DNA of 64,000 nt, taken from contig JAFNFQ010000004.1 of NCBI GenBank assembly GCA_017885655.1, positions 6,330-70,329 of the forward strand, given 5' to 3'. The translations under genes were made by a program, and so were the position numbers. Of the stretch, positions 36,514 through 64,000 are shown one piece after another. The notes below the pieces were generated by a model, which worked only from the letters and a program-made list of their open reading frames with translations, made no database searches and was not told the DNA's origin. Position 1 is the stretch's first letter. The number at the start of each line of letters is the position of its first letter. Source of the stretch: Methanobacteriota archaeon. GTDB lineage: Archaea > Thermoplasmatota > Thermoplasmata > RBG-16-68-12 > JAFNFQ01.

Positions 36514-39500
36514 CTAGAGCCGCGTGAAGTCCTTCACGACAGGCTTGTCGTCGGACCTGTGTTTCATCTTGTGCTCCAAGTTCTCGTCATCGCGGAGGGG
36601 CTTGCCGCAGTTGGGGCAGTTCTCCTCGAGGATGCACGCCCTGCAGAGCTGGGCACCGCAGGAATGGGCGAGAACAGACTGCGCCCTGTGAGGGAAACAC
36701 CGCTTGACTTTCTCTTCCTCGGATGCTTTCTCCGGCGTCGGCGGGCTTGGTTTTGGCAGTGGTCTGAGCTCAGGCTTCGGTTTGACCTTCTCGATAGGGA
36801 TCTCGCGGAAGATTCTGAGCGAGGTCTCAAGCATCTTCGCCTCCATCGCCCCGATGCGGAAGTTCCTCGCGAGCCCGACCAGGGTCCATTCCTCCTTCGG
36901 CAGGGTGAGCGCCCGCCTGACCATCTCGTCGTTGCCCTGGACCTGCGAGGGTTCCATCTGGACCGATTCGACGCTCCTGATGTACCCGAGGACTTCCCTC
37001 GCATCCGTAAGGCTGCAGTCGGGCATCGCGGTCGCGATGTCGGCGAGCTGCACGCCGGATGTTGTCGGCGCGAAGCTCAGCACGGCCCCGGAGAGCTGCT
37101 CGTACCTCAGCTGTTGCGTCGGCGGGAGCTTCTCGAGGTCGACGATGGCCGGTTCCTTGACGTAGCTCACCACCTCGTCCAGGATGTCGAAGGGCACCTT
37201 GCACTCCCTGAATATCTCCTCCTTCGTCGCTGACTTCCGGTTCGCCTTCTCGAACTCGATGACGACCTTCGCGAAAGCCTCTATCTGCTGGAGGTGCGCT
37301 CTCTCAGTCGCGGTGTTCTTGCCTTCGATGGCGGGAGTGTAGCTGGGATCGAGCCTCAGGGCGAAGTCGAACGACCTCACCGCCTCCTCGTACCTCCCCA
37401 GGCCAAGTAGAGCGAGCGCCTTGCTGTTCCAGAGGGTCTTGTCGTGCGAGTCGATGCCCAAGGCGGTGTCGTACGAGTCCAGGGCGCCCTCGAAGTCACC
37501 CTTCCTCTCCAGCGCGAACCCGAGGGAGTATCTCAGGTTCTTGTCCTTAGGATCGATTATGATCGCCTGGGTGTACGCGGCGACCGCCGAGGTGAAGTCC
37601 GACAGGCGGATGTGGGCCTCGGCCTTCCCCCGCCATGCGGAGCAGTCGCGGGGGTCGAGCGTGACGGCTCTCTCGAACGCGCTGACCGCGTCCTTGTCCT
37701 TCTTCAGTGCGAGCAGCGCCTCCCCCTGCCCGCGCCAGAGCGTCGCGGAGTCGGGTTCGACGGAGGATGCCTTCTCGAAATGAATCAGCGCCTCCTCGTG
37801 CTTGCCGAGGCGCAGCAGCGCCTCTGCCTTGACCTTGACCGCGCTCTGGTTCTCCGGGTCCTTCTCGAGCAGCGGCGTCAGAGTCTTGACAGCCTCGTCG
37901 TTCTTCCCCGTCGCGATGAGCGTTCTTGCCTTGCCTGTGAGGAAATCGGGGTTCATGCTGTCAAGTAGCAATGCGTCCTCGTAGCATTTCAGGGCTTTCT
38001 CGAAGTCGTGCAGGTCGAGGTAGACTTCTCCTCTGCGGCTCAGCGCGAACCTGTCCCTCGGGCTGAGCGTGAGGACGTGTTCGAAGCACTCGAGGGCATC
38101 GTGCGGCTTCCCTAGTCTGAGGAGCAGGTCGCCGCGGCAGTTCCAGCCGCGCTTGTCCATCGAGTCGACTGCGATCGCGCCGTCGAAGGCCATGAGCGCC
38201 TCTTCGTTCATGCCAAGCACTTGATAGGCCAGACCCATGTCCTTGTACGTCTCAACGTCCTTCTTGTCAACGGCAAGTATCTCCCCGCAGGCCTTGACGA
38301 CGCCGGTGTGGTCCTTCACGTCGGAGTGGACTTTCTTCTTGAGCCTCAGGGCGTCGAGGTTTCCCGGGGAAATCAGGAGGGCCTTGTGGATCCCCGACAG
38401 GCTATCCTTGGTCCTGCCTATGGCATGCATGAGGCGCGCCCTCGCCATCCACGCCATGAGATCCTTGTGATCGGTGTCCGTCCACGACACAGCGGACTGG
38501 GCCGCTTCCTCCGACCTGCCGAGATCCTCAAGGGATGCTGTCTTCACCGCCCAGGCCTCCGGCAGTTTGCGGTCGATCGCGAGGATGCGGTTCATCATCT
38601 CGAACGCCTCCTCGTGCCGTTCCATCAGCCTGAGGACCTTGCCGGCGTTGAGCAGCGCCTCTCGATCGTTCTCGTCGATTTCGAGCAGCGCCTTAAAGCA
38701 GGACAGCGAGTCCTCGTACCTCTGCAGCCAGAGCAGGACCGACCCTTTCCTCAGAAGTGCTGTCTTGTCCTTGTCAGAGATTCCGAGAACCTTGTCGTAT
38801 GCCGCGACCGCCTCCTCGAACCTGTGGCAGCCTTCGAGCGCCATGCCCATGGCCAGCCAGGTCCGCGCGTCCTGCGAGTTGAGGCCGATCGACTTCTGGA
38901 ACGAATCCACCGCCTCTTTCGGGTCCTCAAGGTGGTAGAGCGACTCTCCCCGCCGCCGCCAGGTCTCGGCATCGTTGTTGCCCAGGGCGAGCAGTTCGTC
39001 ACACGCCTTCACGGCTTGCAGGTGGTCGCCGCGACCCGCCAGCAGGTCGGCGTAGCGCCGCCACGCGACCTGGTTAGCCGGCTCGCACTTCAGCAATGAG
39101 GAGTAGCACTTGACTGCGTTCTCGATCCGGCCTATCGCCTCCTCCGCCTGGCCCGCATCGAACCAGGCCGCCGCGTCTTTCCTATCGAGCTCAAGCAGCG
39201 CGTATGCAGATTTGATTACGCCTTTGTGGTCGCCCTGCTCCCTGTGCGTCGCTCTCTTTCCCCTGAGCGCCTCGATGTTCCTGTGGTCGAGCGACAGCAC
39301 CTCGTTGAAGGCGGATAGGGCCCCGTGGTAGTTCTTCAGGGTCAGCAGCGCCGAGCCCTTGTCGAGGAGCGTCGAGAAGTTGCGCCTATCGAGGGCGAGT
39401 ATCGCCTCACAGGTCGCTAGCAGGTCATCGTGGCGCCCCAATTCCTTCTCGCACTGTCTCTTCATGTCGAGCACGGCGATGTCCTTGGGCTCGCGCTTCA

Positions 39501-40620
39501 GGTACTGGTTGAAAGTCTCGACCGCCTCGGGCAGGCGGTTCAGCTTCACCTGGGCAGTCCCCTTGTCGGCCCAGGCCTTCTTGTTCTCCGGATCGATGAT
39601 TAAGACGGACTCTGAGGTGTCGAGCACCTCCGTCCATCTCCCCAGCGCGATTAGGCTCTCCTTCTTCGCGACGAGGCTTTCCGCGCTGTTAGGCTGGATC
39701 TTGTTGGCGTTCCTGAAGTCGACTATGGCCTCGTCGTGCTTGCCGACCGACTGGAGAATGAATGCCCTCGTGAGCCAAGCCCTGTAATCCTCGGGGCTCA
39801 GCTCGAGAGCGCGGTCGAGCGCTTCGAGGGCCCCGGCGGTGTCGCCCTTGTTCCCGAGCAGCTCTGCCTTCCGCTCCCACAGGCGCACGTCGTTCGGCTC
39901 TAGGTCGAGCGCCTTTTCGATCGATTTGACAGCGCTTTCGTACTGGCGGATGGACGCGTAGATCTCGGCCTTGCGGGCGTACACCTCCCTCCGGCTCGGA
40001 TCGAGGTGAAGGACGCGATCATATGAAGAGAGTGCCTCCTCATTCTGCCCGAGCTGGCGGTGAGCGTCCGCCTTCCTGAACCAGAGGTCGGGGTCCCTCA
40101 TGCGAAGCCTGAGCAGCTTGTCGTGGTGGGCGATGTCGAGAGGGTCGACCTGCAGCACTCTCTCGAAGCACGCCGCCGCGTCCTCGGGCTGCGCGGTCGA
40201 AAGGAGGAACTCACCCTTGTCCGACCAGACCTCCTTGTCCCCGGGATTGATCTTCAGCGCCCTGTCGAAGCACTCCAGCGCCTCTTTGCTGTTGCCTTGG
40301 CCTGCGAGAAGGCGCGCCTTGCACCGCCACGCCCCGCCATTGTCGGGATCAAGCTGGAGGGCCATATCGGTCGCCTTCTGCGCCTCATCCGACTGGCCCA
40401 GGGTGAGGAACGAATCGCTGAGCCCGCTGTATATCGCGGAGCATTCGGCCTGTCTTCTGACGATCCTGGACACGTCCTCGTCCAGACAGGCCAGCGCCTT
40501 CTGCAGATGCACCAGCGCCTTCTTGTTCGCTCCGACTTGGAGAAGCTCCCTGCCCTCCTGCTCGAGCCGAGAGGCCTTGAGGAGGACCCTGCGCTCTCTA
40601 TCGAAGAAGGAATAATCCAT
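36514..40620 (-). CDS. Giant TPR-repeat protein (about 30 TPR units by eye) with a C-terminal RING-like zinc finger
   Basis: Continuous 34-aa A..(Y/F/C)(D/E)(K/R)(A/V)L..(D/N)P...-type repeats over roughly aa 30-1090. A non-repeat region of about 200 aa follows. The protein ends with CFPH...HSCGAQLCRACILEENCPNCGKPL. Confidence 0.88.
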   Translation of the reverse strand: MDYSFFDRERRVLLKASRLEQEGRELLQVGANKKALVHLQKALACLDEDVSRIVRRQAECSAIYSGLSDSFLTLGQSDEAQKATDMALQLDPDNGGAWRCKARLLAGQGNSKEALECFDRALKINPGDKEVWSDKGEFLLSTAQPEDAAACFERVLQVDPLDIAHHDKLLRLRMRDPDLWFRKADAHRQLGQNEEALSSYDRVLHLDPSRREVYARKAEIYASIRQYESAVKSIEKALDLEPNDVRLWERKAELLGNKGDTAGALEALDRALELSPEDYRAWLTRAFILQSVGKHDEAIVDFRNANKIQPNSAESLVAKKESLIALGRWTEVLDTSESVLIIDPENKKAWADKGTAQVKLNRLPEAVETFNQYLKREPKDIAVLDMKRQCEKELGRHDDLLATCEAILALDRRNFSTLLDKGSALLTLKNYHGALSAFNEVLSLDHRNIEALRGKRATHREQGDHKGVIKSAYALLELDRKDAAAWFDAGQAEEAIGRIENAVKCYSSLLKCEPANQVAWRRYADLLAGRGDHLQAVKACDELLALGNNDAETWRRRGESLYHLEDPKEAVDSFQKSIGLNSQDARTWLAMGMALEGCHRFEEAVAAYDKVLGISDKDKTALLRKGSVLLWLQRYEDSLSCFKALLEIDENDREALLNAGKVLRLMERHEEAFEMMNRILAIDRKLPEAWAVKTASLEDLGRSEEAAQSAVSWTDTDHKDLMAWMARARLMHAIGRTKDSLSGIHKALLISPGNLDALRLKKKVHSDVKDHTGVVKACGEILAVDKKDVETYKDMGLAYQVLGMNEEALMAFDGAIAVDSMDKRGWNCRGDLLLRLGKPHDALECFEHVLTLSPRDRFALSRRGEVYLDLHDFEKALKCYEDALLLDSMNPDFLTGKARTLIATGKNDEAVKTLTPLLEKDPENQSAVKVKAEALLRLGKHEEALIHFEKASSVEPDSATLWRGQGEALLALKKDKDAVSAFERAVTLDPRDCSAWRGKAEAHIRLSDFTSAVAAYTQAIIIDPKDKNLRYSLGFALERKGDFEGALDSYDTALGIDSHDKTLWNSKALALLGLGRYEEAVRSFDFALRLDPSYTPAIEGKNTATERAHLQQIEAFAKVVIEFEKANRKSATKEEIFRECKVPFDILDEVVSYVKEPAIVDLEKLPPTQQLRYEQLSGAVLSFAPTTSGVQLADIATAMPDCSLTDAREVLGYIRSVESVQMEPSQVQGNDEMVRRALTLPKEEWTLVGLARNFRIGAMEAKMLETSLRIFREIPIEKVKPKPELRPLPKPSPPTPEKASEEEKVKRCFPHRAQSVLAHSCGAQLCRACILEENCPNCGKPLRDDENLEHKMKHRSDDKPVVKDFTRL

Positions 40621-44682: not shown

Positions 44683-47367
44683 TTATCCCGGCACGGCAGA
44701 GCCCGGCAGCCTCACTGCCCTGCCCTGTTTCAGGGCAGTGAGCTGGGCGTCCGCGAAGCGGACCATGTCATCCCTTCCAAGGCGTCTCGCGATGCTCCGC
44801 GAGGACGAGAAGAGCTGGGAAGCCTCCTTCCGCTCTCCGTGCTTCGCGAACAACACCGCCGCAGAAACCGTCGAGTTCAGCAGGTCGAGAGGGCTGTGAT
44901 CGTCCCGGAGGGTCCTGAGTCCCGCGCGCAGATGAGCCTTCGCCCCCTCCCAATCTCCGCGCGACTCCTCGACGAATCCCATGCTTATCCTGCACATGCC
45001 CAACGGTACTTTCTCGCCTAGCTTCTCGAATATCTTCATCGCCTCTGCGAGGTTCGCCTCGGCCAATCCGGCGCTCCTTGTGCGCACAAGCGCGGATGCC
45101 GCGTTCATTAACCCGTAACCGAGAATCCGGGCGTTACCGATGCGGCGGGCGAGGTTGATGCCCTCGCGGCATTTCTCGAGCCCGTCCCCCAGTCTGTTGT
45201 TGTGCATCAGGCCGACCCCGACGGCCACGGTGGCCTTCGCGATCTCATGGAGGTTCCCTACAGTCTGCGCCACATCCAGCGCCTCTCTCATGAGCTTCAG
45301 AGCCTTCTCGTTCTCTCCCTTCGCGACCAGCACCCTGGAATAGGCGGAAAGGTACTGCACGAGCCCCTCGGGGTCGTCGCGGGGACCTATCAGCCTCGCC
45401 GCCCTCCTGAAGTGCTTCAGGGCCTTGTCGAGGTGCCCGAAGCTCTCGTTCAGCATCCCGATGGCGTAGTGAACGGCGGATCTTCCCTTGACGTCATCGA
45501 GTCGTTTGTAGATCGAAAGGCTCGAGGTCAGAACGCGCATCGCCTCGTCCCACTCGTTCCTCCTCACGTAGATGTCCCCCATCGCCTTGAGCGCGGCGGC
45601 CTGTTCCCCGAGCTCCCCGCGCTCCCCGGCGAGGCGGGAAGCACGTGCGCGCACCTCGAGGGCCTTCTCCCACTCCCCGAGGCTCGACAGCACGTCGCCT
45701 CTCAGCAGCAGCAGGTCGAGCTTGGTCTCAGGGGCCATCTTCACCCTCTCCAGCCTTCGCAGATAGGCGTCGAGCTCGACCGTGTGACCTTGCTTCGCGA
45801 TATCCTTCCCCTTCTCCGCCAACAGCTTGGCGGCGTCCCGCTCGTCACCCGCCTCGAGCATGTGATGCACCGCCTCGAGGAGGTTCTCGCTCGTGCCCAG
45901 GGACAGGTGATACATCGCGGCCCACTGCTCGTACCTCCTTCTCCTGGCCGGGGTCATCCTCCCCCTGAAGAAGTCCTTCAGCAGGTCGTGAATCTCGAAG
46001 AGGTTCAGCGTCGTCTCCCTGAGCAGGTTCTGGTCAATCAGGAACCTGAGGTTGCCCATGTCGGCCTCCTGCGCGAAGAGCAGGGCCTGCGGGGCGACGG
46101 GGTACCTGAACACCGAGGCGACCTCGAGGATCGAGAGCTCCGGCCGCGAGAGGCGGGCCGCAAGGTCCTCGTCCAGGTACCTGACTATGTCCTTCGTCCT
46201 CGTCCCCTGCGCGGGGTCGACGAGTTCGAGGAAGAGGGGGTGGCCTCCCGTCGCCTCGTAGATCCTGTCAAGGGCGGGCTGCTGGATGTCCACGCTCCTG
46301 AGCGCGAGAAGCCTCGCGGAACTGTCTTTGTCGAGGCCCTGGATCTCGAACTCCTTGACGAGCCTCCTCACCTTCGCGTCGCGCCTGTCGTAGAAGGCCG
46401 GGACGCTCCTGCCGGCGACGATGACCTTGGGCCCGGGCAGGCCGTCGAGCACGAGCTTGAGCGAATAGAGGAGCTGGGTGATCTCCTTGGACGCCTTGTG
46501 ACAGTCGTCGAAGATGAGCAGGGCGTCCAGCCCCTTGAGGTCCTTCTCGAGGAGGCGGCTGACCTCCTCCATGTCCAGGCCGTTCCCGGTCGCGAGGTAG
46601 TTGGAAAGCTCCCTCCGGCCGAGGCAGTCGAGGAACTGCGCGAGGCGGCGGAGCACGTTGCCCGATGCGGACCACTCCTGCACGCGATACCAGAAGAGGT
46701 TCGTGTTCCTCCGCCAGTCCTCCAGGCGCCTCACAAGCAGGGTCGTCTTGCCAATCCCGGGGATCCCGGACAGGGCGAGGAACTTCGACTCGCGCGAGGC
46801 CAGGAACTTGTCCACCTCGTCCAGCTCCCTTATCCTCCCGAAGAAGTACTTCAGCTTGGGCGCCCTCTCGGTGAAGTCGACGAACGCCTGTCTCTTCTCC
46901 TGGCCGCGCTGGAAGGACTTCATGTCGAAGACGCCGCGGTTGACGTGCACCGCGATGCTGAGCGTCGACGCGCTGGCGGGCAGTTGCCGGGCGATCTGCT
47001 TCAATGGCATCCTCGTGATGTCGCCGTTCTCCCCCCTTACCGCGATCATCTCGCCCTCCACCTCCTCCTTGCGCGACCGAGCGAGGCGAGCGCCCGCCTC
47101 CGTGAGGAGGTATGTGGTCCTGCGCAGCTTGCCAGAGGGGACGTGAGCGCGTTCTGCGACGATGAGGCCGCGGTCGATCAGCAGGCGAATCGACTTGGAG
47201 ATTGTGCTCCGGCCCAGCATGGTCGCATCGGCGAGGCCGAACTGCGTGAGGGCGTCGGGCCTCTCGCGCTGCGTCTCGTAACCAGCGAACTCGAGGAGAT
47301 GAAGGAGGATACGGTCCTCCCTGTCGAAGTACATCTTCCTCTTGTAGTAGCTCCTCCCTTTCCTCAT
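44683..47367 (-). CDS. STAND-type P-loop NTPase with N-terminal winged-HTH and C-terminal TPR array
   Basis: wHTH-like STISKSIRLLIDRGLIVAERAHVPSGKLRRTTYLLTEAG. Walker A LALSGIPGIGKTTLL. Walker B LLIFDDCHK. TPR-like repeats over the C-terminal 400 aa or so. Confidence 0.85.
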   Translation of the reverse strand: MRKGRSYYKRKMYFDREDRILLHLLEFAGYETQRERPDALTQFGLADATMLGRSTISKSIRLLIDRGLIVAERAHVPSGKLRRTTYLLTEAGARLARSRKEEVEGEMIAVRGENGDITRMPLKQIARQLPASASTLSIAVHVNRGVFDMKSFQRGQEKRQAFVDFTERAPKLKYFFGRIRELDEVDKFLASRESKFLALSGIPGIGKTTLLVRRLEDWRRNTNLFWYRVQEWSASGNVLRRLAQFLDCLGRRELSNYLATGNGLDMEEVSRLLEKDLKGLDALLIFDDCHKASKEITQLLYSLKLVLDGLPGPKVIVAGRSVPAFYDRRDAKVRRLVKEFEIQGLDKDSSARLLALRSVDIQQPALDRIYEATGGHPLFLELVDPAQGTRTKDIVRYLDEDLAARLSRPELSILEVASVFRYPVAPQALLFAQEADMGNLRFLIDQNLLRETTLNLFEIHDLLKDFFRGRMTPARRRRYEQWAAMYHLSLGTSENLLEAVHHMLEAGDERDAAKLLAEKGKDIAKQGHTVELDAYLRRLERVKMAPETKLDLLLLRGDVLSSLGEWEKALEVRARASRLAGERGELGEQAAALKAMGDIYVRRNEWDEAMRVLTSSLSIYKRLDDVKGRSAVHYAIGMLNESFGHLDKALKHFRRAARLIGPRDDPEGLVQYLSAYSRVLVAKGENEKALKLMREALDVAQTVGNLHEIAKATVAVGVGLMHNNRLGDGLEKCREGINLARRIGNARILGYGLMNAASALVRTRSAGLAEANLAEAMKIFEKLGEKVPLGMCRISMGFVEESRGDWEGAKAHLRAGLRTLRDDHSPLDLLNSTVSAAVLFAKHGERKEASQLFSSSRSIARRLGRDDMVRFADAQLTALKQGRAVRLPGSAVPG

Positions 47368-49454: not shown

Positions 49455-49562
49455 TCCCGCCTTCCGGATTTGAACCGGAGGCCTGATGATGCCAGCGGGC
49501 ACCGCCAACTCTGGCGGGTACCTTCTACAGTCACCCGCTCTACCAGGCTGAGCTAAGGCGGG
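49455..49562 (-). tRNA. tRNA-Tyr (anticodon GUA) with a 34-nt intron at the canonical 37/38 position
   Basis: Hand-folded: acceptor CCCGCCT/AGGCGGG (C1-G72, the archaeal/eukaryal Tyr identity pair), D arm GCTC/GAGC, anticodon stem GGTGA/TCATC, loop CTGTAG|intron|A, T arm TCCGG-TTCAAAT-CCGGA. The intron contains the hairpin CCGCCAGAGTTGGCGG. Confidence 0.88.
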
Positions 49563-49565
49563 ACG

Positions 49566-49664
49566 TGCCGCAGGCCGGACTTGAACCGGCGACTTCGAGA
49601 TTTCCGCGCGAGGGCCTGACCCTCGTACTTCAGTCTCGCACTCTCCCAGCTGAGTTACTGCGGC
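49566..49664 (-). tRNA. tRNA-Phe (anticodon GAA) with a 26-nt intron at the canonical 37/38 position
   Basis: Hand-folded: acceptor GCCGCAG/CTGCGGC, D arm ACTC/GAGT, anticodon stem CGAGA/TCTCG, loop CTGAAG|intron|A, T arm GCCGG-TTCAAGT-CCGGC, discriminator A. Only 3 nt separate it from tRNA-Tyr. Confidence 0.88.
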
Positions 49665-49752: not shown

Positions 49753-50622
49753 CTACAGGTACCCTGAATTCTGGAGGGTCATCAGGTCCTCCGTGCTGAG
49801 CTTCTCTCCTCTCCTGAACCTCTCGTAGATGAGCTCGGCCTCCTTCTTCGCCGCGACCTCGACGACCTCCTCGCGCGGCCTCGCCGTCCTCGCCCTGACA
49901 CCGTGGAGTATCTTGTCGTAGTCGTGCACGAGCCTGATGTGGTCGATGTGGCTCCTGTGCTCCTCGTCGGCCATCATCTTCGTCTTGATGAACTCCTCCT
50001 GGGCGCCGTCCGCCTCCTTCCTCACCGCGTCGCCCTGCTCGTACAGGGAGATCATAATGTCGTGCTCCGCCTGCGCCTGCTCTGCGAGCTCCCCGACCCT
50101 CTTGTGCGCGGTCTCGGCGGTCTCCTTCGTCGCCGCGAGCTCCTCCCGTGCCTTCTTGACCTCCTCGTCCTCCTCCAGGGTCTGCTCTATCTTGTTGATC
50201 TCCGCCTGGTACCGCCCCATCTCCTTGATCAGATCCTTCTCCTTGTCCGCCGTGAGGACCGAGGTCATCTGCCTGAACTCGAGCGCCTTGAGCTCTTTCT
50301 TGAGCTCGAAAAGGTAAGCCTCGCCCCTCGGCATCTTCCTCCGCTTGATGTCGCCGATTATCGCAGCGAGGTCGTTCACCCTGCGGTTCCACCTGTCCCT
50401 CTCCTCCTTGGCCTTCCTGACATCGAGGTTGAGGGCGTCTCTCTTCTCGCGGTGGACAGTCGCCTCCTCGATGAGGGGCCTCGCCTGCGCGTTGAGGGCG
50501 TCCCTCTTCTCGACCCACTGCCTGGTCTTCTCGTTGAGGTCGTCGCGCTTCCGCCTGTGCTTCTCAGCGTCGGCGTTGGCCCTCTCTCTTTTCTCCAGTA
50601 ACCCCCGCTCGAACTCCGCCAT
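49753..50622 (-). CDS. Archaeal coiled-coil protein (COG1340-like), paralog of 18192..19064
   Basis: 289 aa, the same K/E/R-rich coiled-coil layout and length as the 290-aa product at 18192..19064. Confidence 0.75.
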   Translation of the reverse strand: MAEFERGLLEKRERANADAEKHRRKRDDLNEKTRQWVEKRDALNAQARPLIEEATVHREKRDALNLDVRKAKEERDRWNRRVNDLAAIIGDIKRRKMPRGEAYLFELKKELKALEFRQMTSVLTADKEKDLIKEMGRYQAEINKIEQTLEEDEEVKKAREELAATKETAETAHKRVGELAEQAQAEHDIMISLYEQGDAVRKEADGAQEEFIKTKMMADEEHRSHIDHIRLVHDYDKILHGVRARTARPREEVVEVAAKKEAELIYERFRRGEKLSTEDLMTLQNSGYL

Positions 50623-50710: not shown

Positions 50711-51295
50711 TCACTGGCTCGCCACGACGGGGGGTTTCTGCACGCCGAGCACCTTCACGAGTGCGCTCTGGCCGAGGTCCTTGAACGCCTGCTCGACGTT
50801 CTCCCCCGTCTTCGCGCTCGTCATGACGTACTTCCATCCGCGGGCGCTGCAGAATTTCTCCAGCTCGCCGTCGCTGACCTGCCTCGACTCCTTCAGGTCG
50901 ACCTTGTTGGCGACCACCTGCGTCGGGACGACACCCGCGACCGTCTCGATCGCCTTCGACCATGAGTCCAGCTCGAGGAGCGTCTCCTGCCTCGTCAGGT
51001 CGCAGACGGCCATGACGCCGTTCGCGCCGTGGTAGTAGGCTTCCTTCAGCAGGTCCCTGATCGACCTCGTGCCCATGACGTCCCAGATGATCAGGTCAGC
51101 CTTCACCTGGCCTCCATCGAAGTCGACCAAGGTGACAGTCTTCTTCGTGACCTTCGTCCCGAGCGTGGCGATATACCTGTCGTCGTACATGTCCAGGACG
51201 AAGCGCTTGATCATGCTGCTCTTGCCGACGGCGGGCTCTCCGGCTAGACAGAGTTTAACCTTCACTGCTCTTGGCCTTTCGTCATCTTGAGCCAT
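50711..51295 (-). CDS. Small Ras/Rab-like GTPase
   Basis: G1 GEPAVGKSS, G3 WDVMG, G4 NKVD, G5 SAK. Start taken at MAQDDERPR (ATG 51295); the maximal ORF reaches 51349. Confidence 0.85.
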   Translation of the reverse strand: MAQDDERPRAVKVKLCLAGEPAVGKSSMIKRFVLDMYDDRYIATLGTKVTKKTVTLVDFDGGQVKADLIIWDVMGTRSIRDLLKEAYYHGANGVMAVCDLTRQETLLELDSWSKAIETVAGVVPTQVVANKVDLKESRQVSDGELEKFCSARGWKYVMTSAKTGENVEQAFKDLGQSALVKVLGVQKPPVVASQ

Positions 51296-51557
51296 CGCAC
51301 CCCATCTTCCAGTAGAATGCCGCGGTCTCTGCATCTCCCTTGAGCTCATAAATCTTGGCCTTCAACCGCCACATCCCGGGGTACTCGGGCTCGATCTCCT
51401 CGAGCTGCCGAAGCCAGTCGAGGGCCTCCTCGAACTTGCCTTGGATTGACCTCAGCGCGGCGTACGTGAACATGACATCGGGGTCCTTGTCGTTCGCCCT
51501 GAGCCTCTCGTCGAGGACCTTTTCCGTGTCCGGTCTGAACACAATAGACTCGTTCAA
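51282..51557 (-). CDS. Mini TPR-like protein (91 aa) overlapping the GTPase start
   Basis: Two TPR-like units (FTYAALRSIQGKFEEALDWLRQLEEIEP / GMWRLKAKIYELKGDAETAAFYWK). The 3' end overlaps the GTPase ATG by 14 nt. Confidence 0.55.
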   Translation of the reverse strand: MNESIVFRPDTEKVLDERLRANDKDPDVMFTYAALRSIQGKFEEALDWLRQLEEIEPEYPGMWRLKAKIYELKGDAETAAFYWKMGCDGSR

Positions 51558-56599: not shown

Positions 56600-57537
56600 G
56601 GCGGGTGGGAGAGGAAGGGGACGGAGATAACGTTAGCGGAGGGCGGGGCGCTCTCGCCATCGGACGGCTGAAGAGTTCCGGCGGACGATCGGATTTCTTT
56701 TCCGGACAACCGGAGGGGAATCCTGACGGTTGCTTTCCGGCGTCGGACAATCATCGGCGGATCCCGCGCATTCTTCTGGAGATTCAGCGCGATCGCTGGG
56801 GAATGGCGGGCAACCTCGCGAAACCTCCGAGCAACCGTACTCTGATGCGAGACAGTCGTCCCATGCATCGGACAGCTGTTCGGCGATACAATCAGGTCGT
56901 CCTGTAATCCTGCAGAGTCGCTCGGAAGCCCAAGACACCCTCACGGGACTGCTGCGCAGTCATCTGGAAACGGACTCCAGTCTTCCAGAAATCGATTCCA
57001 GTTGTTCGGAAGCATCCTGCAGTCTTCCTGAAGCTCGAATAGGTCCGCTTCAGAGAATCAGCAATCACATGGCGGTTCAAACTGGCAACGCTGGAATTCG
57101 AGCCAATTGAACGACGGACCATGTCGGATGCCCGGGGAACGATCTAGGCCGCTCGGGAATCTTCCAAGATTCAAGTGCAACAGTCGGCAAGTCGACGCAT
57201 GATACCGTCAGGGTTCCCTTTTTACCCTTATGCTCGGTCACATTCATCGAACTGCCGTCTGTCTTCAAGGGCATCCCATCAATTCCAACCCCTGAAGTGC
57301 TGGGATGACTCCCGCCAAACGAACTATCGATGACCGCGAGTGGCTGATCAAGCACCTAACCCCCATGGTGGGGATAGGGCGCGAGATATCGGAGCGCGAT
57401 TCAAGCCTTCCCGCCCGTCCTTGAGCCGCCACGAGCCGAAAACGAGGACGATGCCCGGTCCGCGCAAGGTGGTGAGAAGCGCGTTCTTGCGATATGGAGA
57501 GGAATTTAACTAGTTACAACTCTTATGATTATCCGAC

Positions 57538-57759
57538 ATGGTCTACAAGAGCATCCCTGTGACCGAGGAGACCTACCGGCGGCTCAAGGACTACAAGATG
57601 AGGGGAGCGACGTTCGACGAGGTGATCAACGAGCTCATGCGCAGCGTCCCCGTCGAGGTCCTGGCGGAACGCGTCGTCAAGGAGCACCACGAGCGGATGC
57701 GAGGGCGCGAGGGGAGACCGTGGCGCCAGGTCCTGGAGAAGCGAAAGCGCAGGGCGTGA
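57538..57759 (+). CDS. VapB-like antitoxin-family protein (DUF217/PF02697-like), orphan
   Basis: N-terminus MVYKSIPVTEETYRRLKDYKMRGATFDEVINELM fits the archaeal pattern M.KTI.V.DEVY..L...K....SF(S/D)EVI..L. No PIN/VapC gene follows. Confidence 0.6.
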   Translation: MVYKSIPVTEETYRRLKDYKMRGATFDEVINELMRSVPVEVLAERVVKEHHERMRGREGRPWRQVLEKRKRRA

Positions 57760-57778
57760 ACTCCTTGGCCGCTTAGAA

Positions 57779-58270
57779 CTAGCGAAGGATTCCGCTCGCT
57801 CTAAGATTCACAGAATCGAACAAGACGAAGTCGCCAGATGGGTATGTAGCTCTGTCGATTAGGATTGTTGCGCCAAGGACGATGATATCCTCGCCACCGA
57901 CCGGGCGATACAGCACCTTGTAGAAGCCCCAATTTACCGCTGTCAAGTTCGACAGCTTCACTCCGATCATGGGTTCCGCCCAACCGCCGTGGCCATCACC
58001 TATTGTCATTTTGACATCATCCAAACGTAAGACCTTACCGACTTTGGTCAGAGTGCAGGTCCAATTGCCGTTCGTCAGTTCCACTCGCAGCTCCAAATCC
58101 ATGGGAATATAAGGCGGCCCACTTGTGCTGCTGTTCACAGCCACATACCACCACAGCGCGGCTATGATGATAATGCATATGGCCATGAAGATGGAAGCTA
58201 TCCGAATGAATCTTCTGCGCGAAGGCGGATTTCTTGCATTGCCTGCGGGCATCGTATCGACGCTTTCCAC
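57779..58270 (-). CDS. Hypothetical membrane-anchored protein
   Basis: Basic N-terminus, one TM (IASIFMAICIIIIAALWWYVAV), then an extracytoplasmic domain of about 110 aa. Lower-GC region. No family recognised. Confidence 0.5.
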   Translation of the reverse strand: MESVDTMPAGNARNPPSRRRFIRIASIFMAICIIIIAALWWYVAVNSSTSGPPYIPMDLELRVELTNGNWTCTLTKVGKVLRLDDVKMTIGDGHGGWAEPMIGVKLSNLTAVNWGFYKVLYRPVGGEDIIVLGATILIDRATYPSGDFVLFDSVNLRASGILR

Positions 58271-58553
58271 GTCCTCATGTATGCTCTCAATATGGATAAG
58301 AAGGTTTCAGCTAGGCAGGCTGCACCCAGAATCAACTCACCTCCTTTTCCAGCATGATCCGCACTCTGAACCTAAGCAGGAGGCAGATGTTGTGGGCAAT
58401 CGCCTTCAGCCCGACCCCCCTGCATCGGTTCCAACGCTCCCTGCTGTATTGTCTTCAGGAACCAAGAGACGGGTAGGCTAGGGAATCGGCCGTTTTCCGC
58501 GAGGACATTGGGCAAGAGGCATGGCATCAAAGCCGGTTTCTTGCGCAGACTGA

Positions 58554-58834
58554 GTGCCGTCTCAGGTGTACATCCACAGACGCGCAGAGAAGGAGCTGGA
58601 CGACCTGCCTGAGCATGTGGTGAGGCGGTTCGCGACGGTCTTCGAGATGCTCGAGGAGGATCCGTACCGACCGCGACCCGACCGCGACCCGACTGCGATA
58701 TCAGGCTGGTCAGGGGCCATCCGCGCCTGCATGCAGTCCGCGTCGGGCACTATCGCGGACTGTACGAGGTCGTGGAAGCGGAGAAAGCCGTCTGGTTCAC
58801 CAAGTTCGGGCACCGGCGATCTGTCTACGATTGA
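58554..58834 (+). pseudogene. RelE/ParE-family toxin gene disrupted by an 11-bp tandem duplication (frameshift)
   Basis: N-terminal half in frame 0 (VYIHRRAEKELDDLPEHVVRRFATVFEMLEEDPYRPRP). C-terminal half in frame 2 (GHPRLHAVRVGHYRGLYEVVEAEKAVWFTKFGHRRSVYD*). CCGACCGCGAC occurs twice in tandem (58667-58677, 58678-58688). Removing one copy fuses the halves into an 89-aa RelE/ParE-like protein. Confidence 0.7.
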
Positions 58835-58991
58835 ACGCACGTTCACTGAGAATGAGCACAGGAATGCCAGAATACCTACAGGTGACCGCCGCCTCGAATT
58901 CTTGTCAGACCACCATCCCGCGAATCATCAACGCAGGCAATTGGTAACCTTCAAGTCGGCCCGCGCAGGTTCTACTGTTGTGAAATCTCGA

Positions 58992-59357
58992 ATGGGTCCC
59001 GCAGCGAAGACAGTCGACGAATACCTGGCGAGTGTCCCGCCCGAATCCCGGATCGCCCTCCAGCGGCTGCGCAAGATCATCAAGGCCGCCGCCCCGGACG
59101 CCGAGGCGGTCATCAGCTACTAGATGCCTGCGTTCCGGCAGAACGGGATCCTCGTGTACATCGCAGCGTTCAAGGACCACTGCAGCTTCTTCGTGGGGAG
59201 CCCCAAGATCCGCCGCCAGTTCGCCGCCGAGCTGAAGCCCTTCGCGGCGGGGAAGGGCACGCTCCACTTCACGCCCGACCGGCTTCTGCCCGCCCGCCTG
59301 GTCACGCGCATCGTGAAAGCGCGCGTGGCTGAGAACGCCGCCCGCCGATCCAAGTAG
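58992..59357 (+). pseudogene. DUF1801 (YdhG-like) domain gene interrupted by an in-frame TAG
   Basis: MGPAAKTVDEYLASVPPESRIALQRLRKIIKAAAPDAEAVISY-TAG-MPAFRQNGILVYIAAFKDHCSFFVGS...KGTLHFTPDRLLPARLVTRIVKARVAEN reads as one continuous DUF1801 domain. The TAG at 59121-59123 is in frame with both halves. Confidence 0.7.
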
Positions 59358-59413
59358 GTGTGCATGGAATATCCCCCCACGTCTCTCGAGGATTGGCGTT
59401 GTCAAGAAGCCGT

Positions 59414-60001
59414 TCACATGGTCATGGGCGGCTCGGCGCGATAGCTCAACATGCTCATCTGCGAAGCCGCCCCGGCCCATTTCTCCGGCGGCACGTTCTC
59501 CATCACCGCCCTTGCGAAGTCCTCGAGGCCGCTGAGATACATGTGAAGGCGAATCTTGCCTTCCTTTGACTTGATCACGAACCACTGCGAGGAGGCCGAG
59601 AACACGATCGACTCGATCGACAACCAGGGGCAGAAGAAGTCCCTGCTCCAGGGCGATTTCTTCCTGATGCCGTACCTCGAGATGCCGTACTCCACGCAAG
59701 TCGCCTCGACGAGCAGGGCGAATGACGGCAGACCTATGGCGATGGAAATCGCGACGGCCATCACAACGGCTGCCGTGAGAGACGGCCAATCTGCCATCAG
59801 AGAGATCGCGAAAAAGAAGAAGTAGAAACCAACTCCAAACACCGCGAAGCCCCTGAGCCCCTTGTTGTAATCCAGGAGCAGCTCCCCGGTGGACTCGCTC
59901 CTCTGCGCGCTCCTCTTCCTCCTGGACAATATGAGCGCCTCGATTATCATGGTCAAAGCCGTCGTTGCGGCGATGGAGACGCCCGTGCTCACCGCGTCCA
60001 T
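59414..60001 (-). CDS. Hypothetical membrane protein (about 3 TM plus a soluble C-terminal domain)
   Basis: 195-aa ORF with hydrophobic segments (GVSIAATTALTMIIEALIL, GFAVFGVGFYFFFFAISLM, AAVVMAVAISIAIGLPSFALLV). No family recognised. Confidence 0.5.
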   Translation of the reverse strand: MDAVSTGVSIAATTALTMIIEALILSRRKRSAQRSESTGELLLDYNKGLRGFAVFGVGFYFFFFAISLMADWPSLTAAVVMAVAISIAIGLPSFALLVEATCVEYGISRYGIRKKSPWSRDFFCPWLSIESIVFSASSQWFVIKSKEGKIRLHMYLSGLEDFARAVMENVPPEKWAGAASQMSMLSYRAEPPMTM

Positions 60002-60264
60002 TGCCCGTCAGCCTCCCCCGGGGCGGACTGGATGACCTCGCATTGGCGGTCAGGCTCCAGCGACATCGCTGACTGCATCATCGCTCGTCCTATCAAAGCT
60101 CTGGCGGGACGCCGGCGACCATGGCGGTGGATACGGCGGGGATTGAGGCGGGTGAAGAACGGGATAGTCAGATACGGCAGACATGAGGACGAGGAAGACA
60201 AAGCCGCAGATTGTCGAATCATCTGATGAACTGGATTTGAGCTGACCTGTGGGGCGTTCCGCGT

Positions 60265-61605
60265 TCAGAGCTCCTTCGCCCTATAGATTAGCTTGCTCAT
60301 GTCTGTCTTTCGGATCACCTTCGCTGCTCCCGCCAGATCCTCGAACGTGAAGTCGGGCCTGGCCCTCCTCGCGTCAGCCTCGTACTTCCTCGCCCTCTTC
60401 GCGTCCGCGATCCATATCGTCCAGCACCCGAAGTGCTTCCCCACCACGACATCGGAGACCTTGTCCCCGACCATCCACGCCCGCCTCGGGGAGACGTCGA
60501 GATCCCTCGCCGCCGCGAGCAGCATGGCGGGCTGGGGCTTGTGACACCTGCACTGGCTCATCAGGTTGTGCGGGCAGTAGTAGATCTCTTCAATCCTGAC
60601 GCCATTCTTCGTGAGTTCCTTCAGCATGTTCTCGTGGATCTTCCTCAGCCCCTCGTGGCTCAGGATCTTCCAGCCCATGACGTCCTGGTTCGTGACAATC
60701 GCGAGGCGGAAGCCGCCATCGCACAGCGACTTCATCGCGTCGATAGCGCCTGGAAGGAACTCGAACTCCCGCCAGGTCTTGAGGTACCCGGGCACGCCCT
60801 TGTTGATGACTCCGTCCCTGTCGAGGAACACGACCGGGCCTTTCCCGCCAGAAGATCCTCGTGACTTCAGGAGACCGTGGCGGTGGACCTTGATGTTCGC
60901 CTGCTTCTCCGGGAGGTGGCGGTAAAGATCGACGATGCCCCACTTCGCGAATGGGTTCCTCGTCAGCTCAAGGCCATGGTCGAACAGCTGCCAGTCGACC
61001 TTCTCTATCTCGTCCTCCTTCGGATGGAAATCCCTGCTGAGCACCCGCCCTCGATAAATAAAGCCCAGCGTGTAGGCCGGTTTCTCCGGGAATGTCGAGA
61101 CGTAGACGCCGATTGTGTCCTCCACCGCAACGTCCGCTCCCGTCTCCTCTTTGAACTCCCTCGCACACGCGACCTCCGGCAGCTCGCCGTACTGCATGAA
61201 CCCGCCAGGGAGGTTCCAGTAGCCCATGGAGAATCCCCTCTTGGCCTTGACCATGAGCACCTTGTCCCCCTCCACCGCCGCGACCTCCGAGACGCAGCGC
61301 ATCATCGTCATGTAGATCGCGTTCTTGACGACCGAGTCGACGTCGTCCCTCTCCAGCGCGTCATCCCGCCACAGCCACTCGTCCGGATGGCGGTCCAGCA
61401 GCGGCCTGACCATCTCGACGTCCGCCTCGCTCAATCGCATCGTCGCGAGCTTCTCGACTTTGAATGGGATCTTCTCGCCATCCACCGGAAACCTCAGCTT
61501 TTTGCCATCTTTCACGAGGTAGACCTTGCCGTCAGTCTCGGCATATACCAGCTTCTTCCTCTTCCGCGATGTCATTTCCGGCCTTTTCAAATCGTAATGC
61601 GGCAA
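60265..61605 (-). CDS. Fusion protein: N-terminal unknown region, NUDIX hydrolase, and HAD-IIIA (GmhB/histidinol-phosphatase-like) phosphatase
   Basis: NUDIX box GGFMQYGELPEVACAREFKEETG. HAD-IIIA motifs VVFLDRDGVIN, AIVTNQ, CRCHKPQPAM, and WMVGDKVSDVVVG. Confidence 0.85.
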   Translation of the reverse strand: MPHYDLKRPEMTSRKRKKLVYAETDGKVYLVKDGKKLRFPVDGEKIPFKVEKLATMRLSEADVEMVRPLLDRHPDEWLWRDDALERDDVDSVVKNAIYMTMMRCVSEVAAVEGDKVLMVKAKRGFSMGYWNLPGGFMQYGELPEVACAREFKEETGADVAVEDTIGVYVSTFPEKPAYTLGFIYRGRVLSRDFHPKEDEIEKVDWQLFDHGLELTRNPFAKWGIVDLYRHLPEKQANIKVHRHGLLKSRGSSGGKGPVVFLDRDGVINKGVPGYLKTWREFEFLPGAIDAMKSLCDGGFRLAIVTNQDVMGWKILSHEGLRKIHENMLKELTKNGVRIEEIYYCPHNLMSQCRCHKPQPAMLLAAARDLDVSPRRAWMVGDKVSDVVVGKHFGCWTIWIADAKRARKYEADARRARPDFTFEDLAGAAKVIRKTDMSKLIYRAKEL

Positions 61606-61865
61606 GGCATATAACGATGAGCAAGTGCACTTGTTCGAGGCACGTGCCAGCGCCTCTTTGGCAGTCCTAAGGGTATCATGAGACCGAAATCCGTCGCAAT
61701 CTATTTATGCACGAAAGGACAGATATAATGAGAAGGCCCGGAGCATGTGCAGGATAATCAAGACAAAGAGTGAGACCCTAGCCCTTATTCTCCGCGCGCA
61801 GTATGTGAACGAGGTCTGGAAGAAGGCGCAGACAGGGCAGCCCCCGACCCCGGTCGTCATGAACG

Positions 61866-62108
61866 CTAGGGTTCCGGTTCCGAAGGAGACACCCTAGGCT
61901 GGGCCGCCGGTACCTGTATCGGTCGCTTCGACAGCCTGTTCGCTTGCCCCTCAAGTTCCTGAGCCTTGGCTTTATGCCTGGCGGCTTTGGTTTCTAGTTT
62001 CGAAGCGTCTAACCTCAGCTTGGCGGCTTTCTCCCTCAGCGACGCGGCCTTCGCGTCGTCCTTGGCCTGTTTCTTCAGGTCCCTGATCGTGGAGCCCGGG
62101 ATTGACAC
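61866..62108 (-). CDS. Small Lys/Ala-rich basic coiled-coil protein (paralog of 23854..24087)
   Basis: 80 aa, DLKKQAKDDAKAASLREKAAKLRLDASKLETKAARHKAKAQELEGQANRL. TATA-like GATATAAATG about 28 nt upstream of the ATG. Flanks the 21-bp repeat array. Confidence 0.5.
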   Translation of the reverse strand: MSIPGSTIRDLKKQAKDDAKAASLREKAAKLRLDASKLETKAARHKAKAQELEGQANRLSKRPIQVPAAQPRVSPSEPEP

Positions 62109-62330
62109 AGGCCTCTGAGGGGTGCGGGTCGATATAAATGTTGAGACGCATCACCGCAAAGGTCTCATGTCGAATCTATCCCGCCCACGGCAGCGCTCCC
62201 GCCAAGGACATCCGCATCCATGTCGCCGCCATGCGGATTCACCCGCGGCCAACCGCCGCCGACCCTCTCTACCCTTGAAACACCTCTTCCACCATCTGCG
62301 CCGACGTTTTCTACTCCGTGACCTCGTCGG

Positions 62331-62727
62331 TCCACTAGTAGACCGACGGGTTCCACGCTTGAATCGGCCTGTTTCGAGTCAGAATCGCGGGTCTCCACGT
62401 CGGAAGTCTGTTTTCTACTTGGAGAAATCGTCCATCCACTAGTAGACGAGAGATTTCTCCACGTAGATGTGGCGGATCACGGAGTAGACCCGGTCTGTTC
62501 GGGCGTCCGAGCATGGTTGAGAGTGTAGACCCGTTGAGTCTACGAGTAGAACTGTGCGGTCTACGAGTAGAGATGTCCGGTCCACAAGTAGACCCGTCTC
62601 ATCCACGAGTAGAACTGATCGCTCCACCAGTAGACCCGCTCGGTCCACTAGTAGACCCGTCTCATCCACGAGTGGACCTGTCCGGTCTACAAGTAGACCC
62701 GTTCGGTCCACACGCAAACCTCCTGCC
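62331..62727. repeat. Array of phased 21-bp direct repeats with palindromic core TCYAC-NN-GTAGAC (9 near-perfect units plus about 10 degenerate in-register units)
   Basis: Units start at 62539, 62560, 62581, 62602, 62623, 62644, 62665, 62686 and 62707, exactly 21 bp apart. Weaker cores lie at 62331, 62352, 62394, 62414, 62435, 62457 and 62476, plus a GTAGACC half-site at 62525. The array sits in the 830-bp gap between divergent genes. Confidence 0.85.
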
Positions 62728-62942
62728 TCCAACTTGTCGGGACACCATCGTCCATGGCGTGAGTCCCAAGCGAACGTAGACCCGGAAATTGCGAGGGCGA
62801 CCGACCTCGATGAGCGAGTGGCGCACCATGGCGCGCCAATCATTGTGTCTTAGTCGGCAGGAGAAGAGGCGGGTCCCGATGAATGAATGAGGAGAACCGC
62901 CACAGATTCTTTATTCCCTCGCCCGAGAACAAGGAGGACAAA

Positions 62943-64000
62943 GTGTTGCAGTGCCACGTAGCCGCAAAACCTACTTATCACCGCCAAGTCTACTCTCGTC
63001 CCGTGAGAGTCCACGTCGAGGCCTACGGCTGCACGCTGAACAAGGGCGAGGCCAGAATGATGGAGGAAACGCTGCGCGGGAGCGGGCATGCCATAGTCAC
63101 TGACATTGATTCAGCCGATGCGAACCTTCTCGTGACCTGCACCGTGATCGACGCGACGGAGAGGCGGATGGTCTCTCGGATGAAGGCATTGGCGGGAACC
63201 GGCAAACCTCTATTCGTCTCCGGCTGCATGGCCACCGCTCAGCCCGCCATCGTGAGCGAAGTCGCTCCACAGGCGGAACTTGTCCCGCCGGGGGATTTCT
63301 CCCGCCTATCCGAAATCTTTGGCGGGAAGCAGACCGGATGGCGGGAGGAAATCACATCAATTGAACCGCCAGACTCCAGCGTCGAGGCGATAGTCCCCAT
63401 CGCGCAGGGCTGCATCGGGCGGTGCACCTACTGCATCACGAAGCTCGCGCGCGGCGGCCTGAGGAGCCGCCAACGAGAGCAAATCCTTCGGCAAGTAGAG
63501 CGCCACCTCTCTGCGGGCTACAAGGAGATATGGCTCACCGCGCAGGACTCGACCGCCTACGGGCGGGACATCGGCCTGACCCTCGCTGACCTGATCGATT
63601 CTGTTGCGGGAGTCGAGGGGGATTTCCGCATCCGCGTCGGCATGGCGAGCCCGCAGACCTGCCTCCCGATTCTCAACGAACTCGTCAAGGCCTACGCCTC
63701 CCCCAAGGTCTACAAGTTCCTGCACCTGCCGGTGCAGAGCGGGGACGACGAGATACTCAGGGCGATGGGGCGGGACTACACCATCGACGATTTCAAGCGG
63801 ATCGTTGTGGGATTCCGCGAGGCTTTCCCCGACATCACGCTCTCCACCGACATCATCGTCGGATTCCCCGGAGAGACCGAGAAGCACTTCGGGGCTTCCA
63901 TGAACCTCATCAAGGAAGTCAAGCCTGGCAAAGTCAACGTGACCAGGTTCTCCTCGCGCCCGGGCACGAAGGCCGAGACGATGGCGGGGAAGGTGGCCGG
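62943..64000 (+). CDS. MiaB-like radical SAM tRNA methylthiotransferase (archaeal MtaB/CDKAL1 type), 3' end outside window
   Basis: Not in the ORF track because no stop falls inside the window. My own translation gives VHVEAYGCTLNKGEA (UPF0004 domain), IAQGCIGRCTYCITKLARG (CxxxCxxC), LHLPVQSGDDEILRAMGR, and IIVGFPGETEKHF. GTG 62943 is preceded by AGGAGG at 5 nt; GTG 63003 (MRVHVEAYGC) is the alternative. Confidence 0.88.
   Translation, partial: MLQCHVAAKPTYHRQVYSRPVRVHVEAYGCTLNKGEARMMEETLRGSGHAIVTDIDSADANLLVTCTVIDATERRMVSRMKALAGTGKPLFVSGCMATAQPAIVSEVAPQAELVPPGDFSRLSEIFGGKQTGWREEITSIEPPDSSVEAIVPIAQGCIGRCTYCITKLARGGLRSRQREQILRQVERHLSAGYKEIWLTAQDSTAYGRDIGLTLADLIDSVAGVEGDFRIRVGMASPQTCLPILNELVKAYASPKVYKFLHLPVQSGDDEILRAMGRDYTIDDFKRIVVGFREAFPDITLSTDIIVGFPGETEKHFGASMNLIKEVKPGKVNVTRFSSRPGTKAETMAGKVA

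Follow-up and report, generated by a model that had tools for sequence, protein, structure and literature searches.

What is the block of phased 21-bp repeats that separates two divergent genes in a 64-kb stretch of the genome of an uncultured Thermoplasmata archaeon (64,000 nucleotides of contig JAFNFQ010000004.1, assembly GCA_017885655.1; hereafter, the window)? An earlier reading of this DNA from its letters alone (the sequence-only reading) had placed the repeats in an 830-bp divergent intergenic region; the flanking genes are indeed divergent, and the region measures 834 bp (62109–62942). We found that the tract at 62266–62727 does not code for protein, is specific to its lineage and consists of about 22 direct repeats of a 21-bp unit that centres on the palindrome GGTCYAC-NN-GTRGACC. 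Its exact period and conserved arms make the earlier proposal, that dimers of a DNA-binding protein occupy phased sites along the array, the best reading, and we assign a probability of roughly 50% to the array being a binding platform for such a protein, encoded elsewhere in the genome.

Tandem Repeats Finder returned a period of 21 bp with 8.9 copies and 72% matches over 62525–62711, as well as a super-period of 63 bp, or three units, on the same tract (3.0 copies, 80% matches). The 21-bp register of the sequence-only reading, which another computed period would have overturned, thus held, and its nine unit starts (62539 to 62707, every 21 bp) were correct, the ninth unit being degenerate as described. 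The array comprises two zones on the plus strand: 13 older degenerate units (62266–62538), recognized by the phase of their half-sites and by autocorrelation, and nine crisp units (62539–62727; consensus TCCACGAGTAGACCTGTTCGG), which form a tandem array of eight good units and the degenerate terminal one and were recognized by Tandem Repeats Finder, motif enrichment and the conservation of arms versus linker. All units have the same orientation, and the period is exactly 21 bp. The palindrome consists of 7-bp arms around a 2-bp spacer and covers 16 of the 21 bp of the unit; the inverted repeat TCYAC-NN-GTRGA(C) reported earlier is present, but its arms are longer than had been noticed. The commonest unit is asymmetric (TCCAC...GTAGA), with a C in the left arm and an A in the right arm.

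The 12-mer TCYACNNGTRGA matched ten times in the window, always within 62331–62697, when 0.12 matches were expected from dinucleotide shuffles, an enrichment of about 80-fold; none of 100 shuffles reached ten matches. The half-site TCYAC occurs 18 times from 62268 to 62707, and every copy falls in a 3-nt phase band modulo 21. The weaker upstream copies that had been followed back to 62331 are therefore real and in phase, but they reach further, to 62268. Autocorrelation of the degenerate part (62266–62524) gave peaks at lags of 21 and 42 (0.41, against a mean of 0.25 and a standard deviation of 0.05), and the perfect site TCCACTAGTAGAC is found in two of its 13 units, at 62331 and 62435. A single short-read assembly underlies the copy number in the window. 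For the same strain, an independent contig (L001; L-numbers denote the related public contigs and loci used in our comparison) ends at window position 62279, just ahead of the repeats, and the L027 contig ends within the array. Because independent short-read assemblies break at or inside the tract, copy numbers in public contigs, including that of the window, need long-read confirmation.

A 10-bp inverted repeat, TGGAGAAATC ... GATTTCTCCA (62420–62461), flanks the perfect site at 62435. The units beside that site mirror one another and consist of hybrid half-sites (TCTAC/GGAGA and TCTCC/GTAGA). In diverged alleles, two or three changes in the inverted repeat are compensatory, but several pairs are broken.

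Related contigs revealed how the element is distributed and how it changes. When metagenomes were scanned for two units in phase, more than 120 loci were returned, of which six aligned to the window as true homologues: L027/L044 (89% identity), L127 (88%), L068 (86%) and L074/L075 (80%). A further one, L144, was added later. These homologues are restricted to a narrow clade. Homology to the related contigs starts at about 62151–62171, and the left, non-repetitive part of the conserved module (62160–62265, plus strand) aligned by blastn to L027/L044, L127, L068, L074/L075 and L144 with 80–89% identity. The number of crisp units in the six homologues was 9, 8, 3, 3, 2 and 2, and the indels in the repeat zone of the true homologues were all multiples of 21 bp (21, 21 and 126); L074/L075 have one additional 21-bp unit in the degenerate part. 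The array therefore turns over by whole units.

Within the unit, the palindrome arms are spared. In a set of 22 distinct crisp units drawn from five genomes, mean entropy was 0.21 bits for the ten arm positions and 1.09 bits for the spacer and linker, and mismatches to the consensus affected 11 of 220 arm positions compared with 81 of 242 spacer or linker positions. This agrees with the statement, made from the window only, that conservation of the half-sites contrasts with variation in the spacer and linker. Only 24 of the 352,716 sets of ten positions scored as low as the arms (p about 7e-5). Because the commonest unit is asymmetric, the arms have not been kept alike through hairpin-templated correction. 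Sparing of the arms is unlike neutral repeat decay and favours recognition by a dimeric DNA-binding protein.

The tract does not encode a protein. Stop codons interrupt all six frames across 62186–62538, where the ratio of nonsynonymous to synonymous differences (pN/pS) was 0.5–1.7 in comparison with five homologues, whereas the adjacent MiaB-like gene gave 0.18–0.24 in the same genome pairs. The N termini of the open reading frames (ORFs) over the array are frame-shifted between genomes by 1-nt and 2-nt indels. The GC content of third codon positions (GC3) was 0.46–0.57 in three array ORFs and 0.80–0.90 in clear genes. In the minus-strand array ORF, CTA accounts for 9 of 20 leucine codons (45%, compared with 2.8% in clear genes); the CTA excess noted earlier is thus real, although the claim that it would cover nearly every leucine was overstated. 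A profile search of 5.8 billion proteins with the most persistent frame of the module gave no match, nor did an exact-sequence look-up of a 134-amino-acid (aa) ORF. When this heptad-repeat ORF was compared with 1.84 billion representatives by HMMER, all matches but one were either spurious ORFs or heptad proteins unrelated to it. The exception, P0133 from L144, is a true homologue but continues past the stop codon of the window into another frame. In L044, the LLVD frame contains no ORF of at least 60 aa. Six-frame stops, pN/pS, frame shifts, GC3 and the lack of a protein homologue all agree with the earlier judgement that the tract is not coding.

How might such an array work? We infer protein binding, dimer stoichiometry and cooperativity from its architecture: each palindrome would be occupied by a single dimer of a protein that recognizes its sequence and whose gene lies elsewhere in the genome, and a 7+2+7 palindrome is typical of dimer sites. 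With the units exactly two helical turns apart, all dimers would lie on one face of the DNA and might bind cooperatively into a filament or a wrapped nucleoprotein complex. The array would gain and lose whole units through slippage or unequal exchange, and the resulting complex would be accessory rather than essential.

Two known systems offer analogies. In the sopC centromere of the F plasmid, a 43-bp unit containing a 16-bp inverted repeat occurs as 12 direct repeats (PMC3177203). The array shares tandem direct repeats and an inverted repeat of roughly 16 bp in every crisp unit, with conserved arms, and dimer binding within a large nucleoprotein complex, as proposed here, is what sopC does. 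It differs in having 9–22 repeats of a 21-bp unit, so that its sites are almost contiguous, in being chromosomal and archaeal, and in lacking sequence similarity and adjacent parA/parB-like (sopA/sopB) genes; nor is it retained across close relatives, being dispensable in sister genomes. Iterons have units of about 17–22 bp and a cooperativity that depends on helical phase, and iteron origins contain 1–7 units next to a rep gene and an AT-rich unwinding element (PMC4980987). The array resembles them in its direct repeats within that size range, in one orientation and with a period of exactly 21 bp that keeps the sites on one helical face, but it has far more units and neither a rep gene nor an AT-rich element in the window or related loci. 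The iterons of the lambda origin have internal dyad symmetry and bind dimers of the O protein. By analogy, the array may work like sopC or iterons, but we do not assign it to either family because the partner genes and, for iterons, the AT-rich region were looked for and not found.

A third comparison was with SegB, a dimeric ribbon–helix–helix protein whose motif, TCTAGA-S-TCTAGA, is a 13-bp palindrome with the core AGA-S-TCT and whose sites are clustered upstream of a gene (bioRxiv 10.1101/2025.02.07.637068). Both are archaeal palindromic sites with TAGA/TCTA words. However, SegB sites are dispersed and have inward-facing arms with a 1-nt spacer, whereas the array is a 21-bp tandem repeat without segAB, genes that are absent from the window. 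The SegB motif matched six times with three mismatches when 11.4 matches were expected, with a single weak match at 62517 that lacks the core.

Several observations weigh against a bound platform. Outside the array, no isolated palindrome sites occur anywhere in the window. The crisp units descend from about three founders and so are not independent samples; a count by founder, made by hand, still placed about 1 of roughly 10 variable positions in the arms (hypergeometric p about 0.002). At orthologous positions in different genomes, half-sites were only a little less variable than the other positions (20% versus 28%, p = 0.11). The module also diverges no more slowly than the ordinary intergenic DNA alongside it. 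In the sister genomes L136–L138 and L145/L146, the allele is 67–70% identical to that of the window and has neither an intact motif nor a tandem array; its 21/42/63-bp periodicity nevertheless persists, which counts in favour of a platform. Because this decayed allele lies within flanks that are 90–93% identical to those of the window, the element is dispensable and can be lost without obvious cost. The more distant relatives L143, L004 and L005 have no module. Finally, we found no candidate for the binding protein; neither of the two adjacent small coiled-coil ORFs co-occurs with the array.

We rejected the idea that the module as a whole evolves more slowly than neutral DNA. Its rate of change is about half that of synonymous sites in the MiaB-like gene, but the adjoining intergenic DNA evolves likewise, and in comparison with L136 (Ga0373625_0000019) the module is 33% diverged, far above the synonymous sites of the 80-aa gene (pS 0.185). 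Constraint is therefore demonstrated for the arms only, not for the module as a whole.

The first of the two coiled-coil ORFs, an 80-aa basic protein, had been put forward as the candidate binder, but its distribution speaks against this role. The gene travels with a NUDIX-HAD gene rather than the array: L143 has it but lacks the array, L136 has it together with a decayed array, and in L068 and L027 the array occurs without it alongside. Its product has no recognizable domain, DNA-binding or other, few relatives and no structural match. The other, a coiled-coil ORF of 132 aa, lies beside the module in only some genomes; the window, L068, L074 and L127 are not among them. Sequence searches of Pfam, PHROGs and PDB assigned no function to the flanking ORFans. 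An exact-sequence look-up of the NUDIX-HAD protein gave no match; gene callers probably picked another start. The iteron-origin, centromere and operator roles suggested earlier fared no better, with no rep, par or orc gene, origin recognition box (ORB) or AT-rich element nearby. The statement that no described element has this unit was borne out by searches for Rfam families, the ORB consensus, the SegB motif, plasmids and phages, all of which were negative. As for its role, our best but weakly held guess is that the array serves to load or titrate a protein at the border of a variable gene island that lies upstream of the MiaB-like gene.

The most serious rival to a binding platform is a functionless or selfish minisatellite, or variable-number tandem repeat (VNTR), in which a hairpin-prone 21-bp unit expands and contracts by replication slippage in a recombination-prone intergenic region. 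Intergenic loci of this kind are known in prokaryotes, and the MIRU-type loci used for strain typing are examples. Like them, the array is a non-coding tandem repeat that differs by whole units between close relatives, with copy numbers of 2, 3, 8 or 9. The decayed allele of the sister genomes, the absence of a partner gene from the window and related loci, divergence similar to that of neighbouring intergenic DNA and the weak constraint at orthologous positions are also what such a repeat would show. The sequence-only reading had not foreseen copy-number variation, a decayed allele in sister genomes or a rearrangement-prone locus, and it is these traits that keep the selfish or neutral explanation alive. 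However, neutral decay would strike all 21 positions equally, whereas variability in the arms is about one-fifth of that elsewhere in the unit. Variability in the array is thus position-specific, with the palindrome spared; the old degenerate part has stayed in phase, and the left arm TCYAC survives in 9 of its 13 units. The asymmetry of the commonest unit also argues against hairpin-templated correction as the cause of the matching arms. We therefore consider a minisatellite without function to be unlikely, though it must be taken seriously.

A further point for a minisatellite came from composition-matched control palindromes, which showed that 21-bp arrays are common in public data. In viral contigs, three such controls gave 33, 9 and 18 loci, compared with 9 for the real motif. 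As the controls return as many loci or more, the other 21-bp arrays are a generic background and not a family. We rejected a widespread family of arrays on these grounds, and also because linkers and GC content differ and only six loci align. Among the unrelated arrays, L126 (556–1353) contains about 38 units of TCTACCTGTAGACAGCCAAGA in a near-perfect 21-bp array with the same palindromic 12-mer, and the long near-perfect 21-bp arrays in L059 (13631–13748) and L077 (10251–10376) share the palindromic 12-mer by chance. Tandem Repeats Finder also reported short 21-bp periodicities at L003 8312–8351 and L004 2097–2141, which are unrelated to the non-coding array. The one in L003 sits within the homologue of the 80-aa gene (8256–8495); for L004, this gene assignment is inferred from position only.

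A second alternative, which we regard as distinctly improbable, links the array to a mobile or extrachromosomal element, as its relic or as a cis-site such as an iteron origin, a plasmid-like centromere or an attachment region; the Rep, ParB-like protein or recombinase that binds it would be carried by an element absent from the window. Apart from the architecture, which is like that of sopC and iterons, the locus itself lends some credence to this idea because it is a plasticity zone. Synteny with L002 and L003 stops at about 62150, between the promoter of the 80-aa gene and the module, and the ORFan cassettes that flank the module on both sides differ between relatives. The right end of the module is partly duplicated in L136: about 130 bp of it occur twice (7337–7463 and 9625–9750), as direct repeats around a 2.2-kb insertion with three minus-strand ORFans, one of which (8976–9467) matches phrog_10141 (E = 4e-23). 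Crisp and decayed modules each occur with and without the 2.2-kb insertion. The existence of all four combinations indicates that recombination shuffles the locus.

The machinery that a mobile element would need was not found. A Pfam scan of about 40 ORFs detected no Orc1/Cdc6, ParA/ParB, Rep or integrase genes in the window; rep, par, integrase and transposase genes were absent from the window and the related loci examined, and the flanking ORFs of both gave no Rep-like matches in Pfam or PHROGs. The lowest GC content of any 60-bp window across 61500–63200 was 0.43, which indicates that there is no AT-rich unwinding element. Nothing similar to the array was found among 72,556 plasmids and 50,697 phage records. 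L044 has the same left junction as the insertion in L136. We therefore rejected a recurrent insertion hotspot beside the array, as these homologous junctions reflect a single ancestral insertion, not repeated targeting.

The array could also be the cis-site of a still undescribed DNA-organizing system of soil and sediment Thermoplasmata. Examples would be an orphan centromere or loading platform on the chromosome, or an origin of the iteron type that works independently of Orc. The dimeric protein that binds it would be encoded elsewhere, and strains with and without that protein would be distinguished by crisp and decayed alleles, respectively. We regard this proposal as a long shot.

Could the array instead act as RNA? 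A minus-strand transcript would contain tandem GGUCUAC-NN-GUGGACC hairpins that might serve as a protein sponge or as an array in a 3′ untranslated region. On the minus strand, the C/A arm pair becomes a U-G wobble, so that 35 of 36 units can pair at this position, compared with 18 of 36 on the plus strand. The minus strand also folds more stably (−101 kcal/mol, z = −5.8) than the plus strand (−70.9 kcal/mol, z = −2.7), and a minus-strand gene precedes the array, in the direction of that strand, in L044 and L136. However, the counts of CA, TA, CG and TG pairs (18, 13, 4 and 1) equal those expected from base frequencies (18.9, 12.1, 3.1 and 1.9), which means that there is no covariation. We rejected the strand asymmetry as an RNA signal on the same basis, as base frequencies alone account for the C/A wobble counts. 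The covariation terms from RNAalifold were +3.1 and +0.1 kcal/mol (seven sequences, including 67%-identical alleles), and many predicted pairs are broken in the diverged allele. In addition, a 2-nt loop is sterically poor, and a strong fold z-score is typical of any palindrome array. Rfam gave nothing credible at gathering or permissive thresholds, and no conserved promoter or terminator for an array RNA was found. An RNA element is therefore very unlikely.

Still less probable is a chromosomal origin dependent on Orc1/Cdc6, with the units as divergent ORBs. The archaeal ORB consensus, CTTCCAGTGGAAACGAAAGGGGT, has a TTCCA-N-TGGAAA core and a G-string, and ORBs are paired in inverted orientation and linked to orc1/cdc6 (PMC4153887). 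The array shares with ORBs and mini-ORBs a setting of repeated, partly dyad-symmetric boxes in a long archaeal intergenic region, with many phased repeats, and the old units CTCCAC-GTC-GGAAG and TTCCAC-GC-TTGAA loosely resemble the core. However, the ORB consensus, searched as TTCCANTGGAAAYNNNNGGGGT, gave no match with up to three mismatches, and the core alone matched 12 times when 9.6 matches were expected by chance, never in the array. The G-string, the inverted pairing and the orc1/cdc6 linkage are likewise absent at the array; in L136 and L143, the 10 kb that follow the MiaB-like gene contain no called orc1/cdc6. The local GC minimum of 43% and the decay of the element in sister genomes also count against an origin.

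Least credible of all is a heptad-repeat protein encoded by the array (LLVDRTG on the minus strand; STSRPV or LRVELxG on the plus strand), for although ORFs of 134, 99 and 88 aa are open over it, the period is divisible by three and HMMER matches other heptad-repeat proteins, the unrelated matches, shifted or closed frames and atypical codon usage described above, together with a flanking module that has stops in every frame and a pN/pS of about 1, speak against it.

Around the array, the region divides into further segments. The left part of the module contains a block, CTCTCTACCCTTGAAACAC, that survives even in the diverged allele. To the right of the array, the block CTCCAAC.TG.CGGGACACCA..GTCCA.GGCGGTGAG... 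(62728–62800, plus strand) shows little or no variation across the two allelic types and the two L136 copies; it is the best-conserved part of the region, more so than the array. It is followed by the proximal upstream region of the MiaB-like gene (62801–62942, plus strand), which has a TTTATT box at about 62909 and a GGAGG before the GTG start at 62943. This segment is 87–90% identical to relatives and is non-coding, as its 1-nt and 2-nt indels show. The MiaB-like gene itself (62943–64000, plus strand), which is cut by the end of the window, encodes an archaeal, CDKAL1-type t6A methylthiotransferase, as judged by the Pfam domains UPF0004 and Radical_SAM and by the source names. On the other side, the leaderless 80-aa coiled-coil gene (61866–62108, minus strand) is preceded on its strand by the TATA-like sequence ATTTATAT (62132–62139). 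With a pN/pS of 0.06–0.11 in comparison with three relatives, this ORF is, on sequence evidence, a genuine gene.

The window is ordinary chromosome that contains RNA polymerase subunits, metabolic genes and transporters. Its nearest reference contig is a Thermoplasmata metagenome-assembled genome, in which the neighbouring gene is 93% identical. A segment of about 3.7 kb (56600–60264) is missing from L003, which is 91–93% identical and in which the ATPase gene of an ATP-binding cassette (ABC) transporter abuts the NUDIX-HAD gene. This segment contains a VapB-like antitoxin ORF (57538–57759), a possible toxin-like ORF at 58554 and membrane ORFans, and it may be a small inserted island. Further away, two of the three tRNA matches in the window are adjacent genes of 99 and 108 nt (49455–49664, minus strand) that Rfam matched and ARAGORN missed; their length suggests introns. 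A Ras/Arf-family small GTPase gene (50711–51349, minus strand) adjoins that of a DUF7121 protein (49753–50622), and the GTPase is also present in L143. The minus strand also encodes a 1368-aa protein composed entirely of tetratricopeptide repeats (TPRs; 36514–40620) and an 894-aa protein with winged helix–turn–helix, STAND-type ATPase and TPR regions (44683–47367).

The locus does not currently bear on any long-standing open question. If a protein does bind, however, the array would be a rare archaeal example of a chromosomal nucleoprotein platform like sopC or iterons but without adjacent partner genes, in a lineage that has no genetic system and almost no characterized cis-elements. The crisp and decayed alleles in near-identical backgrounds would then provide a natural comparative handle for tracing the binder. 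If nothing binds, the array would be a clean case of position-specific conservation within a prokaryotic minisatellite and could serve as a strain-typing marker for the clade.

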